Shown in pieces: positions 3,329 to 42,959 of a stretch of DNA of 58,956 bases. Position numbers and translations under genes: made by a program. The notes under the pieces were generated by a model. The model searched no databases. It was not told the origin of the DNA and saw only the letters and a list, made by a program, of their open reading frames with translations. The DNA lies in NCBI GenBank assembly GCA_964451605.1, contig CAYVJA010000002.1:39969-98924 (forward strand), read 5' to 3'. Positions within the stretch are counted from its first letter, which is position 1, and every line of letters begins with the position of its first letter. This DNA comes from an uncultured Bacteroidales bacterium (lineage in GTDB: Bacteria > Bacteroidota > Bacteroidia > Bacteroidales > UBA4181).

Positions 3329-3524
3329 GCGCGCAGCGCAATGCTCTAATGCTCTAATGCTCTAATGCTTTAATGCTCTAGTGCTCTAATGCTCTAGTGC
3401 TGCGCTTCGCACCTGATTGGATGTAACTACCTCTTCGACAAGATAAGTTTTGCGACCCATTTGCGCGAAGCGCAGCATTAAAGCACTCAAAGTGCGTTCG
3501 CACTTTGAAGCATTAGAGCATTAA
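3329..3524. repeat. Intergenic repeat copy A (octamer array + GC clamp + P module + inverted clamp/octamers)
   Basis: GCGCGCAGCGCA is followed by 7 tandem 8-mers (ATGCTCTA/GTGCTCTA, 3341-3396) and GTGCTGCGCTTCGCAC. Then come CCTGATTGGATGTAACTACCTCTTCGACA (3412-3440) and the inverted clamp GCGCGAAGCGCAGCA (3463-3477). The copy ends with the hairpin CAAAGTGCGttCGCACTTTG (3488-3507) and reverse octamers TTAGAGCAT. Confidence 0.9.
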
Positions 3525-3561
3525 ATTATTACCTTAGTATGTTTCAAACCCTCTCCTCACT

Positions 3562-6273
3562 ATGAGATCTTTTCTGTTTTTTGTGGCTTTGCTGCTATGT
3601 CCGGTTTTCCCGGTGCAGGGCGCTGAATTGCTTTCGGTTTATGAATTGCGGTGCGAAAACCGGATTAATCCGGTGGGTATTGATAAGACGACTCCCCGTT
3701 TCAGCTGGAAGTATAGCAGTTCGCAAAACGGTGCCGAGCAGAGTGCTTACCAGCTTATGGTGGCAACTGATTCGGCTTTGCTGGCAAAGGGTAAGCCCGA
3801 TCTCTGGGATTCAGGGAAGTGTAAATCGTCGGCTTCGCTGTGGGTTCCCTACGAAGGATTGCAGTTGGGTTCGGGGATGCCTCTCTATTGGAAGGTGAGG
3901 ATCTGGGATGGCCGCGGAAAGGTTTCGGCATGGAGCCCTGTTGCGCAATGCAGCGTCGGGTTACTTTCCGAGACGGATTGGGGTAGCGCTTCGTACATTG
4001 GTTTTCCTACTGAGGCGGGGTATCGTGAGGCGCCTCAGGTTAAGCAGTTGTTTCGGGTGGAGAAACCAGGCGGAAGGCTCTTTCTGTACGTGAACTCTTT
4101 AGGGTATCATGAGGCCTATATCAATGGCCGGAAGGTGGGAGAGGGGGTGCTGGCTCCCGCGGTTTCGCAGTTTACGAAACGTTCGTATGTGGTGGCGTAC
4201 GACATTACTCCGCTGGTAAAACCGGGCGACAACCAACTGATGTTGTGGCTGGGGAGTGGCTGGTATACCGAGAGCTTCCCCGGGGTGGTGCACAATGGCC
4301 CCTTGGTCAGGGCGCAGATAGAGCAGGTATCGGGTTCGCAACGTGAGCTGTTGGTGGCTACCGACGCTTCATGGAGAGGCCGTAAGAGTAGCTATACCCG
4401 GCAGGGCAATTGGCGCTACGAGGCATTGGGGGGTGAAACTCTTGATGGCCGGATGGCACAGACCGACCTGCTCCCTGAGGGGGCTCAAGGCAGAGAGTGG
4501 CTCCCTGTAACCGTGGTTTCGGTGCCCAGGCATGAGGCCTCTATGCAGCGGACAGAACAGAATCTGATTACCGAGACCCTTTCGCCGGTAAAGATTACGG
4601 CTGTCGGAAAAGACACCTTCCTGGTAGATATGGGCAAGTGTCTTACCGGATGGGCCGATATCCGATTCCCGAGGCTGCAGAAATCGCAGCAGGTGGTGCT
4701 GGAGTTTGGCGATATCCTCGGTAAAAATGGTCGATTGGATCATCACAAACAGATTGATCGCTATGTAGCCGCCGGAAGCGGAAGCGAACGGTTTGTCAAT
4801 AAGTTTAACTATCACGGATTTCGCTATATCCGGATTATCAATCTGAAGGAGGCTCCGTCGGCCGACTCCATCAAGGCCTTCCTGATCCGTACCGGGTTCG
4901 AAACTGCCTCATCCTTTGCCTGTTCTGATCCGGATTTGAATCGTATCCACGACATGGTATCCTATACGCTTCAGTGTCTCAGTATGGGAGGGGTTATGGT
5001 CGACTGTCCCACCATTGAACGGTTGGGCTATGGCGGCGACGGTAACGCCTCGACCGAAACGGCTCAGACCCTGTTTAACCTCAATCCGATGTACCACGAC
5101 TGGTTACAGGCGTGGGCCGATTGTCTCCGCGACGACGGAGGGATGCCGCATACCGCCCCCAATCCCTATCCGGCCGGCGGAGGTCCCTATTGGTGTGGCT
5201 TTATCATTACGGCCTCATGGCGAACCTACCTCCATTACGGTGATTCCGAGATTTTGGAGAAGTTTTACCCGGCCATGCAGAAGTGGTTGGGATATGCCGC
5301 TGCCTATTGGGGCGACGGGCTGTTGAAGGGCTGGCCCGAAACCGACTACCGTACCTGGTATCTGGGCGACTGGGCTACTCCGCGGGGTGTGAATCAAATG
5401 GATCCGGCTTCGGTGGGATTGGTGAACAACTGCTTTATGGCGGTCTGTTTCGACAATATGCAAAAAATTGCCGGGGTGCTGGGTAAAACAGACGATGCAG
5501 CGCGCTATGCCCAACAAAAGTCGGATATCCAAAAACAGATTCATCTCCGCTTTTTCGATGCCCCAAAAGGGAGTTACGGAACCGGTTCGCAGATCGATTT
5601 TGCCTATCCGCTGCTGTCGGGCGTGGTACCCGCAGAGTTACGCAACGAGGTAACTTCGCGCTTTAAAGAGGCTACCGAAACCACCTGGCGAGGCCATCTC
5701 ACCACCGGCCTGGTGGGGGTTCCTGTACTAACGGAGTGGGCGGTAAAGAACAGTGCGGCCGATTTTATGTACAACATGCTGAAAAAGCGCGACTATCCCG
5801 GTTACCTCTATATGATAGACAATGGAGCCACTACCACCTGGGAGCATTGGGACGGAGCCCGAAGCTGGATTCATAACTGCTACAACGGGATAGGTTCATG
5901 GTTTTATCAGGCCCCGGGAGGCATTCAACCCGTTGAAGAGGGGCCTGCCTTCCGGCAGATTCGGATCGAACCGCAAATACCGAAAGGGGTTACCTGGGCC
6001 AAAACCCGGAAGGAGACCCCTTACGGAACCCTTGTAGTAAACTGGACCCTGGAAAATGGGGAGATAGAACTCTCGCTTCAGATTCCCTTTGGGAGTTGTG
6101 CCGAAGTGATGTTGCCTGCTGGCGTGAATCAGTACACATTAAACGGCAAATCCAGGCGAGTTGGTAGCAATCGCGGAACGGAAAACGTGGAGGAAAATCT
6201 ACAGGGTGTTGCGTTGAAGGGAGGGAAGTACACACTGCGCGTCAGCGCATCAGAGCGCGAAGCGCAGCACTAG
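3562..6273 (+). CDS. alpha-L-rhamnosidase (GH78), secreted
   Basis: 903 aa with a signal peptide. The N-terminus (LRCENRINPVGIDKTTPRFSWK) is GH78-like, with a six-hairpin catalytic region. The last ~6-10 codons (…REAQH*) run into repeat copy B. Confidence 0.88.
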   Translation: MRSFLFFVALLLCPVFPVQGAELLSVYELRCENRINPVGIDKTTPRFSWKYSSSQNGAEQSAYQLMVATDSALLAKGKPDLWDSGKCKSSASLWVPYEGLQLGSGMPLYWKVRIWDGRGKVSAWSPVAQCSVGLLSETDWGSASYIGFPTEAGYREAPQVKQLFRVEKPGGRLFLYVNSLGYHEAYINGRKVGEGVLAPAVSQFTKRSYVVAYDITPLVKPGDNQLMLWLGSGWYTESFPGVVHNGPLVRAQIEQVSGSQRELLVATDASWRGRKSSYTRQGNWRYEALGGETLDGRMAQTDLLPEGAQGREWLPVTVVSVPRHEASMQRTEQNLITETLSPVKITAVGKDTFLVDMGKCLTGWADIRFPRLQKSQQVVLEFGDILGKNGRLDHHKQIDRYVAAGSGSERFVNKFNYHGFRYIRIINLKEAPSADSIKAFLIRTGFETASSFACSDPDLNRIHDMVSYTLQCLSMGGVMVDCPTIERLGYGGDGNASTETAQTLFNLNPMYHDWLQAWADCLRDDGGMPHTAPNPYPAGGGPYWCGFIITASWRTYLHYGDSEILEKFYPAMQKWLGYAAAYWGDGLLKGWPETDYRTWYLGDWATPRGVNQMDPASVGLVNNCFMAVCFDNMQKIAGVLGKTDDAARYAQQKSDIQKQIHLRFFDAPKGSYGTGSQIDFAYPLLSGVVPAELRNEVTSRFKEATETTWRGHLTTGLVGVPVLTEWAVKNSAADFMYNMLKKRDYPGYLYMIDNGATTTWEHWDGARSWIHNCYNGIGSWFYQAPGGIQPVEEGPAFRQIRIEPQIPKGVTWAKTRKETPYGTLVVNWTLENGEIELSLQIPFGSCAEVMLPAGVNQYTLNGKSRRVGSNRGTENVEENLQGVALKGGKYTLRVSASEREAQH

Positions 6274-42500: not shown

Positions 42501-42775
42501 GCCACCCAATGGAATTTCCAGGGCCCGTTTAGAGAGTGAAAATAGGCCGATTGCTCCCTCTTGCCCGCCTCCGCCAATGCGAGACTCTCATAGCCAAACG
42601 AATGCGCCTTCATCGGAGCCCGCCCCCAGGAAACCACCTCCGGATTCAACAACTCCTCCGGCAAAGCCAGTTCCCCCTGAACTGCCTGCGCCTGAGCGAG
42701 ATACTGCACCCCGCAAAGCATAAAAAATAATTCAAACACCAGAAAACAACCCAAGATCTTCTTCATATCATCCAC
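39572..42775 (-). CDS. beta-galactosidase (GH2), secreted
   Basis: 1067 aa with a signal peptide, GH2 sugar-binding, Ig-like and TIM-barrel domains ([35 protein letters not shown]), and a C-terminal Bgal small-N domain. Confidence 0.92.
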   Translation of the reverse strand: [1067 protein letters not shown]

Positions 42776-42834
42776 GCAATTATCGGCGCATTCGCACCTT
42801 TCGGTTAATAAGAGAAAGATACGAAGATTCCCTC

Positions 42835-42959
42835 AATGGTTAACTCTCAATGGTGAATGGTTAATTAATGCTCTAATGCTTCAAAGTGCTAATGCACTAG
42901 AGCACTAGAGCACTAGAGCATTAGAGCACTAGAGCATTAGAGCATTGCGCGCAGCGCAT
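42835..42959. repeat. Intergenic repeat copy G (divergent promoter region GH2 / gltX)
   Basis: AATGGTTAACTCTCAATGGTGAATGGTTAATTA is followed by ATGCTCTA ATGCTTCAAAGTGCTAATGCAC. Six reverse octamers follow (TAGAGCAC/TAGAGCAT, 42898-42945), then TGCGCGCAGCGCATC. Confidence 0.9.

Follow-up and report, generated by a model that had tools for sequence, protein, structure and literature searches.

An octamer-hairpin repeat family in a Bacteroidales genome, its preference for the flanks of carbohydrate-active enzyme genes and a possible link to gene turnover

Why should single genes for carbohydrate-active enzymes (CAZymes), set among unrelated genes, each be bracketed by copies of the same small repeat? 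The question is raised by a 58,956-nt stretch from an uncultured Bacteroidales bacterium (GenBank assembly GCA_964451605.1, contig CAYVJA010000002.1, positions 39,969 to 98,924 of the forward strand), referred to here as the window. An original prediction, made from the sequence alone, had placed copies of one repeat family on both sides of a glycoside hydrolase (GH) family 78 gene, a polysaccharide lyase (PL) family 4 gene and a GH2 gene, and had offered three readings: cassettes analogous to those bounded by integron attC sites, shared elements of a pectin regulon, or local coincidence. What remains after our analysis is an octamer-hairpin repeat family with a roughly five-fold preference for CAZyme flanks and one clear case of gene presence/absence. 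An attC-like cassette system and a specific regulon element are poorly supported.

Repeat copies and the genes they flank

Eight copies (A to H) lie at essentially the predicted positions, with six of the eight on the six flanks of the GH78, PL4 and GH2 genes. All eight are intergenic and belong to one mosaic family, and a BLAST of the copies against the whole window (50% GC, 42 proteins) returned no further one. They occupy 8 of the 30 gaps of at least 40 nt, or about one copy per 7.4 kb. The building blocks are tandem 8-nt units, ARTGCTCT (AATGCTCT/AGTGCTCT) or its complement (AGAGCATT/AGAGCACT), called forward and reverse octamers below; a second unit type, AATGGTKA; and a third, CACTGYTN. 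Octamer arrays are usually inverted around very GC-rich mini-hairpins of the form GCGC-GAA/GCA-GCGC, in which the loop is GAA or GCA. Further parts are the stem pair GCTGCGCTTCGC...GCGAAGCGCAGC and the small hairpins AAAGTGCGTTCGCACTTT and GAAGCGCCATAGCGCTTC. Some copies also carry a small nested element, M. The copies and the flanked genes are as follows.

3329 to 3524: copy A, in the divergent gap between the flavodoxin-like and GH78 genes, ending 38 nt short of the ATG of GH78; it opens with a GCGCGCAGCGC mini-hairpin and 7-8 forward octamers, has a truncated M insert between a GCTGCGCTTCGC and a GCGAAGCGCAGC stem, and closes with reverse octamers around a AAAGTGCGTTCGCACTTT hairpin
3412 to 3466, plus strand: left-end fragment of M (CCTGATTGGrGGTAACTGCCTCTTCGAC...), truncated, nested in the central loop of A
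3562 to 6273, plus strand: GH78 alpha-L-rhamnosidase gene (Pfam), intact, with a signal-like N-terminus, flanked by A and B
6236 to 6341: copy B, in the convergent gap between the GH78 and hybrid kinase genes, with both stop codons inside; GC hairpins, a GAAGCGCCATAGCGCTTC hairpin within reverse octamers, and ACCATTA units last
13291 to 13451: copy C, where the nitroreductase and Der GTPase genes converge, with no CAZyme neighbour; forward octamers, GC stem, interior of ~90 nt with small hairpins, reverse octamers
21749 to 21921: copy D, 100 nt upstream of the ATG of PL4, between that gene and a kinase gene; forward octamers, GC stem, palindromic M derivative (21818-21886), CACTGYTN units
22021 to 23868, plus strand: PL4 rhamnogalacturonan lyase pseudogene (Pfam domains), flanked by D and E
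23866 to 23963: copy E, a half element that begins at the PL4 stop codon (TAA); forward octamers, GCGCTGCGCGC, AATGGTKA units; contigs of other assemblies break here
39470 to 39574: copy F, a half element between the tRNA-Glu(UUC) terminator and the GH2 stop codon, the GH2 TAA being its last unit; reverse octamers, CACTGYTN units, GCGCGCAGCGC
39572 to 42775, minus strand: GH2 (LacZ-type) beta-galactosidase gene (Pfam), likely start ATG at 42766, flanked by F and G
42835 to 42959: copy G, in the divergent gap between the GH2 gene and gltX, ending ~10 nt before the promoter-like box TATCTTTG of gltX; AATGGTKA units, a long hairpin formed by 2 forward and 6 reverse octamers, then GCGCGCAGCGC
58700 to 58956: copy H, in the convergent gap between PurN and a tetratricopeptide repeat (TPR) protein gene, with no CAZyme neighbour, continuing past the window end; nine forward octamers, GC stem, full M element of ~180 nt

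The folding of the copies is uneven. Against shuffled controls, A has a z-score of -8.2 (-88.9 kcal/mol), B of -4.8 and G of about -6 (both strands). Copies E (z +1.8) and F (z about -1 to 0) are half elements made of single-orientation arrays and have no significant fold. The unit length of 8 is not divisible by 3, and every unit carries TAA or TAG on both strands; the arrays therefore stop translation in all six frames, which is why genes end at or inside copies. The original prediction had the copies at gene 3' ends start at a stop codon, which is the case for E at the PL4 TAA. At GH2 the TAA is the last unit of F. Copy B, however, starts ~35 nt before the GH78 stop, so that the last ~12 GH78 codons are repeat-encoded. 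A side observation concerns the forward unit pair (3340-3401 and other forward arrays), which spells ATG-CTC-TAA or GTG-CTC-TAG, each stop sharing bases with the start that follows (TAATG/TAGTG). Forward arrays thus read as chains of two-codon mini-ORFs in all three frames.

The M element is ~180 nt long and resembles miniature inverted-repeat transposable elements (MITEs) in its small size and in its terminal inverted repeats, the imperfect ends CCTGATTGGGGGTAACTGCCTC... / ...GAGCCACTTACCTCCAAACGG (copy H as continued in the same-species contig L088, 10652-10830). It occurs three times in the window: the insert in A is truncated, the one in D (21818-21886) has collapsed into a perfect palindrome, and H has it in full (58817 onward). 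It is also found at 1-160 of the related locus L079. In that continuation of H, M is followed by a reverse-octamer half and then by a canonical terminator.

The flanked genes had been described as three secreted CAZyme genes. Pfam supports GH78 and GH2, and all three genes encode hydrophobic signal-like N-termini, but the PL4 gene is a pseudogene. It carries an in-frame nonsense change (TAT-to-TAG, 22681-22683) and, relative to an intact allele, an in-frame deletion of 117 nt (39 codons) that ends near 22672 and is bounded by T-runs. The intact allele comes from another sample, on a 2,154-nt contig (L175) that spans D to E at 98.3% nucleotide identity. The PL4 gene is thus decaying and is dead in this strain. 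No exact match to the GH78 protein is on record. The comparison of the three genes with their neighbours that the original prediction had proposed gave a native picture: in GC, GC3 and codon usage they are in line with the window as a whole. This composition speaks against a foreign origin of the three CAZyme genes.

Association with CAZyme genes

Given 8 occupied gaps of 30, the probability that all six flanks of the GH78, PL4 and GH2 genes were hit by chance is 4.7e-5. If all five glycosidase-like genes of the window are counted, with 9 flanks, the probability of at least six hits is 0.003; the two further genes (10414-12624 and NamZ, 17101-18279) have no copy.

We then took a census of forty 8-kb loci from two related metagenome-assembled genomes (MAGs), picked only by an exact array match and annotated with Pfam. 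It compared 76 genes directly flanking an array with 47 control genes from the same loci that border a repeat-free gap of at least 100 nt. Pfam was run on concatenated "polyproteins", so that families were assigned to genes by the coordinates of the best stretch only. Genes of GH or carbohydrate esterase (CE) families made up 16/76 of the flanking genes (GH43, GH3 and GH2, three each; GH67, GH8, GH76, GH32 and GH78, one each; CE15, two) vs. 2/47 of the controls (GH29 and a glgB-type GH13), an odds ratio of 6 (one-sided Fisher p = 0.008). A sensitive rescan reassigned eight gaps to the repeat class and replicated in these two MAGs the predicted enrichment beside CAZymes, at 17/81 vs. 2/44 (p = 0.011). 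The earlier misclassification had worked against the effect, for example at a GH43 gene whose array lay just outside the locus. Together with the conservative figure for the window, the census gives p ~4e-4.

The association is therefore reproducible but moderate, at roughly five-fold. About 80% of flanked genes are not CAZyme genes and include gltB/D, topA, proS, metH, folD, lipA/B, ffh, lpxB, and efflux and kinase genes. The CAZyme families beside repeats are broad plant-wall types (GH2, 3, 8, 32, 43, 67, 76, 78 and CE15) and not pectin-specific. The census showed no bias for convergent over tandem or divergent gaps. In the relatives the array lies 5' of the CAZyme gene in 10 cases (22-335 nt from the start codon) and 3' in 5, a split that does not differ significantly from that of other genes (p = 0.25). 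Most of these CAZyme genes have an array on one side, and double bracketing was seen only for GH78 and a GH3-esterase-GH43 cluster. The double bracketing of three genes out of three in the window is thus partly luck on top of a real enrichment. Coincidence, as the original prediction had allowed, accounts for some of that perfect pattern, but the enrichment itself recurs in two relatives.

Orthologous sites in related genomes

Same-species contigs (L072 and L088) were found at 99.6% identity. In the sister species JBFWIG01, gltX has 88% amino-acid and ~84% nucleotide identity. Both this sister species and a second MAG, CAYGID01, carry the repeat family including its GC clamp. Protein relatives of gltX at 72-78% identity come from Bacteroidales, Rikenellaceae and Tenuifilaceae MAGs.

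The original prediction had named an empty site to look for, tRNA-Glu next to gltX without GH2, and the sister species has it. Its contig L078 runs tRNA-Glu(UUC), terminator, one repeat of ~200 nt and gltX, with no GH2 gene, while the same-species contig L072 has the gene and differs from the window by one substitution in copy F. Upstream of gltX, L078 and L079 both have repeats that are built differently from G. In the window, gltX (42999-44531) is flanked by two tRNA-Glu genes, UUC upstream (39332-39406) and CUC downstream (44634-44706), and only GH2 plus its repeats lies between the upstream tRNA gene and gltX. The closest GH2 in a metagenome scan had 68% identity, and none of 80 GH2-homologue loci from elsewhere had the repeats.

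At the GH78 locus the picture is one of persistence. Window positions 1013-8966 are colinear with contig L026 of the sister species, which has A and B at orthologous sites and encodes a GH78 ortholog ~85% identical, equal to the neighbouring genes. On these alignments, GH78 with A and B is vertically inherited. A run of 108 nt at B (6211-6318) is identical in L026, between flanks of about 85% identity. The right half of A is 95% identical and the stretch from A to the ATG 97%, vs. 70% for the left half of A and 47-84% for ordinary gaps. The M insert is missing from the orthologous loop of A, but the filled and M-less loops differ by other sequence as well and no clean target-site duplication is legible. 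Inside GH78 itself, positions 4132-4424 hold perfect runs of 59-108 nt relative to the sister species, with ~94% identity over 300 nt vs. ~85% elsewhere; strong constraint or recombination could account for this tract.

Between the two MAGs, orthologous copies differ by modules of 60-90 nt. Between strains 99.5% identical, the arrays differ in unit number: G has 6 reverse units vs. 8 in L072, and H has 9 units vs. 7 in L088. The octamer arrays behave as hypervariable minisatellites and, varying between strains this close, could serve as typing markers. The variable arrays are as follows.

42894-42946: window, copy G
58713-58787: window, copy H
9880-9948: contig L072
10565-10621: contig L088

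The copies also break assemblies. Many public short-read contigs of this species stop inside G, E and H, 38-200 nt from gltX, the gene for the isoprenylcysteine methyltransferase (ICMT)-like protein and PurN. The flank of copy D recurs in another strain, whose contig ends inside D, and look-ups with the ICMT-like protein gave only 1-2.6-kb contigs broken at copy E. With breaks falling right next to CAZyme genes, counts and contexts of CAZymes taken from MAGs are likely biased in this lineage. Contigs L073-L077, L080-L083, L089-L091 and L175 all break within copies, which leaves PL4 alone on its contig, and MAGs of this kind lose the context of CAZyme genes systematically.

Interpretation of the repeats

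We judge it somewhat better than an even chance (about 0.55) that the copies are lineage-specific selfish or structural hairpin repeats that mark sites of gene turnover, of the type of repetitive extragenic palindromic sequences and bacterial interspersed mosaic elements (REP/BIME) or of short tandemly repeated repetitive sequences and small dispersed repeats (STRR/SDR). The kinship is suggested by the GNA-loop hairpins, the nesting of elements in loops, the slippage-prone arrays, the restriction to a lineage and the persistence of sites while modules turn over. Hairpins with GNA loops are stable in single-stranded DNA. The repeats would spread or grow at such hairpins in single-stranded DNA and by slippage. 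The CAZyme bias would reflect that GH and CE genes are separately transcribed, dispensable and often gained or lost, with flanks that tolerate repeat insertion.

Segments of 15-62 nt in the same orientation flank all three genes: the direct-repeat family D6 in A and B, the family D1 in D and E, and the GCGCGCAGCGCATCA motif in F and G. Such segments make loss by looping-out, or replacement by recombination, mechanically easy, and through them a gene could be looped out or a new one could enter. The presence/absence of GH2 and the decay of PL4 would then be instances of turnover at repeat-bearing sites, and the repeats may both accumulate at such sites and promote turnover there.

Several observations weigh against this interpretation. 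Copy B, with its 108 identical nt, and the right half of A are far more conserved than ordinary gaps, which hints at selection for function or at gene conversion. Copies stand directly upstream of core-promoter-like boxes of essential genes, e.g., gltX in three species, a placement unlike that of purely deleterious junk. No transposase was identified in the window or among ~130 annotated proteins of related loci, and mobility is read only from nested and missing modules. Signal-peptide-like (secreted) proteins as a class are not enriched beside the repeats. The census covers ~40 exact-pattern loci with crude ORF calls in two related MAGs, at p ~0.01. The GH2 change may have been a gain or a loss; relatives of gltX at 77-78% identity share no synteny with the window.

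The copies could instead be functional insulators or RNA-end elements, hairpin arrays kept by selection around separately regulated genes that block transcriptional and translational read-through from neighbours or, like REP elements in E. coli, protect mRNA ends, a need that would be greatest for inducible stand-alone CAZyme genes. We hold this to be possible, at odds well short of even. It stays alive because B and part of A are conserved (95-100% across species for B and the right half of A, ~85% elsewhere) and because copies lie just upstream of promoter-like boxes, as at the TATCTTTG box of gltX. The very stable hairpins of A, B and G on both strands would suit such a role, as would the TAA or TAG in every frame of both strands, with genes ending inside arrays, and a CAZyme enrichment that secretion status does not account for. 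The hairpins are not, however, followed by T-runs, separate canonical hairpin-plus-T terminators are already found next to F and H, and E and F are unfolded. Whole-module differences among orthologs and strain-variable array lengths are unlike a tuned element, and the census shows no gap-type bias. A sampling accident, with repeats placed independently of gene function, is unlikely in our view. The window had been seen before the hypothesis was framed, the p values of the census are modest (0.008-0.03), its two MAGs are close relatives that share some orthologous loci, its gene calls are crude, and double bracketing is rare in relatives. Against this, the census was an independent test, of a hypothesis stated beforehand, with regionally matched controls and an odds ratio of 5-6, its misclassification ran against the effect, and the combined p is ~4e-4.

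The two functional readings of the original prediction fare worse. Sites of a plant-polysaccharide regulon, with octamers bound by a DNA- or RNA-binding regulator or transcribed as a multicopy small RNA, would fit the CAZyme enrichment in three genomes and the 5' position of arrays at 10/15 of the relatives' CAZyme genes, and FopS, a multicopy RNA family at Bacteroides glycan loci, is a precedent (PMC11697453). We nevertheless find this reading improbable: ~80% of the genes beside copies are unrelated, the preference for 5' positions lacks significance (p = 0.25), copies also lie at 3' ends, in convergent gaps and in any other gap type, orthologous promoters do not share the number and orientation of arrays, orthologous copies differ by whole modules, and the flanked CAZyme families are heterogeneous and not pectin-specific. 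Nor did any copy match Rfam, FopS and GibS included, even at E<=1. True single-gene cassettes, in which gene and copies are moved together by a dedicated recombinase acting on the hairpins (attC-like, or by REP/RAYT-mediated capture), are very improbable. The bracketing of all three genes, the presence/absence of GH2 exactly at a repeat-bearing site and the likeness of GNA-loop hairpins to HUH and integron recombinase substrates all speak for them. So would the PL4 contigs from other samples that hold the gene alone between two copies, if assembly breaks at repeats did not explain such short contigs. Missing, however, are an integrase or transposase (59 kb of window, ~130 annotated related-locus proteins), attC cores and GTAG/CGTC tags. 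GH78 with A and B is vertically inherited, gene composition is native, the two flanks of each gene are built differently, arrays in relatives are mostly one-sided, and they were found at 0/80 GH2-homologue loci.

To return to repeats at turnover sites, a more speculative extension would make them genome-wide portable modules of homology and insulation that permit a recombinase-independent "plug-in" loss, gain and exchange of single CAZyme genes among strains and species in Bacteroidales poor in polysaccharide utilization loci (PULs), with conserved copies such as B doubling as bidirectional insulators. We consider this extension rather unlikely. If the enrichment holds genome-wide, small repeat DNA would be tied to the gene class that matters most ecologically and changes most in the Bacteroidales, and this would offer a handle on how CAZyme repertoires change outside classical PULs.

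Comparison with known repeat and gene-exchange systems

The REP/BIME sequences and REPINs of Proteobacteria are mobilised by RAYT (TnpA-REP) Y1 transposases, and RAYT subclasses 2.4 and 2.6, with "atypical secondary structures", have been reported in Bacteroidetes (PMC6006769, PMC3116915, PMC3733652). The copies resemble REP/BIME as high-copy, strictly extragenic imperfect palindromes with stable hairpins, arranged in mosaic clusters of alternating orientation, in their location at gene ends, in their persistence at orthologous sites and in the breaks they cause in short-read assemblies. The window holds eight intergenic copies, of which A, B and G fold significantly by z-score, and dozens more occur in the loci of relatives. 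They differ from REP/BIME in being built of tandem 8-nt units rather than a single palindrome of 20-40 nt and in carrying other small elements nested in their hairpin loops. A GTAG/CGTC tag was not consistently present at the palindromes of the copies, where it occurred only at background frequency, and no RAYT gene was found among the ~130 annotated related-locus proteins, a tiny sample.

The cyanobacterial STRR, heptamer arrays with nested SDR, were reportedly described by Mazel in 1990 and by Elhai in 2008. They share with the window copies intergenic tandem arrays of 7-8-nt units, several unit types per genome, small palindromic inserts, the lack of a known associated transposase and a lineage-specific abundance. 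They belong to another phylum, their unit is 7 and not 8 nt and differs in sequence, and the window arrays are typically paired and inverted around GC mini-hairpins. We know of no report of a functional gene-class bias for STRR.

Closer in taxonomy is a MITE of Porphyromonas gingivalis, whose tandem units are reportedly longer, about 22-23 nt. It contains a minisatellite (PMC4596501). It is a non-autonomous Bacteroidales element that, like the copies, combines an inverted-repeat structure with internal tandem repeats of varying number, but it is a single defined MITE with terminal inverted repeats.

Integron cassettes offer single genes bounded by imperfect palindromes that fold as single strands, with presence/absence among strains. 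The 42 window proteins include no integrase or recombinase domain, no attI was found in the window, and a regular-expression search of both strands of the eight copies found no RYYYAAC ... GTTRRRY core pair. In place of a head-to-tail array, GH78, PL4 and GH2 lie 16-17 kb apart among syntenic housekeeping genes. Each is bordered on its two sides by repeats of unlike build and retains its own promoter region. Another parallel is with the minimal mobile elements and Correia repeats of Neisseria, in which single genes, alternative or absent, lie between conserved housekeeping genes with small dispersed repeats at the junctions. Exchange of these elements reportedly proceeds by homologous recombination with no dedicated recombinase. 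Here we have one presence/absence case and an unrelated repeat structure, and natural transformation and uptake sequences are, to our knowledge, not described for this lineage.

Two Bacteroidales glycan systems complete the comparison. In Bacteroides, the multicopy small RNAs FopS and GibS control the mRNAs of PULs and glycoside hydrolases, and FopS are defined transcripts with their own promoter, seed region and terminator that act in trans (PMC11697453). The window copies are likewise a multicopy non-coding Bacteroidales family linked to glycan-degradation genes, but they have no Rfam match and no common promoter-terminator layout and stand beside many unrelated genes. The CAZyme genes do not form a PUL either, if a PUL is taken as a SusC/SusD pair with CAZymes and a regulator. 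As predicted, the window has no SusC/SusD pair (no TonB-dependent receptor/SusD pair), hybrid two-component system (HTCS) regulator, integrase or transposase, and its kinases have no AraC domains.

Distribution of the repeats and other features of the window

The octamer-hairpin family is apparently undescribed and specific to this Bacteroidales lineage. The window contains its GC clamp, GCGCGAAGCGCAGC, 7 times, and the loci of the two congeners contain it 17 and 16 times; it was found neither in outgroup loci nor in 920 kb around the 80 GH2 homologues. In a set of 2.9 million viral contigs only 3 had the array pattern and none the clamp junction. The near absence of the pattern from these contigs gives no support to a phage origin of the repeats.

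Related octamer arrays occur, among the matches listed, in Prolixibacteraceae, Fluviicola, Saprospiraceae and other Bacteroidota-order MAGs, and the arrays of a Prolixibacteraceae MAG (L006) share the GCGCGAAGCGC clamp with the window copies. To judge from these matches, the octamer-plus-GC-clamp design in other Bacteroidota orders suggests an undescribed, widespread repeat type. Octamer arrays were even seen, among the matches listed, in Spartobacteria and Planctomycetaceae MAGs. The arrays in L006, L024, L028, L056, L065, L048, L022, L041, L002 and L010 often lie beside other 8-nt arrays (AATGTATA, GGAGTATT, AAATTTGA), and these arrays of other orders often adjoin terminators or tRNA genes.

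In the window, only tRNAs passed the Rfam gathering thresholds. A sigma-70 promoter/terminator scan, whose model says little about promoters of Bacteroidota, gave no terminator-like sites within the copies. Elsewhere the window is ordinary chromosomal core and includes fumarase, Der, Era, ValRS, RF, NadB, gltX, methylmalonyl-CoA mutase and FabF, among others. The start of the ICMT-like gene was revised to near 24094. One further gene merits a separate line.

10414-12624, minus strand: 736-aa protein with a sub-threshold six-hairpin glycosidase match and a C-terminus like carbohydrate-binding module family 35 (CBM35)

The C-terminal domain of this protein resembles the CBM35 of cycloisomaltooligosaccharide glucanotransferase, and on these domain matches the protein is probably carbohydrate-active. 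A 403-nt gap (10011-10413) lies downstream of its stop codon.

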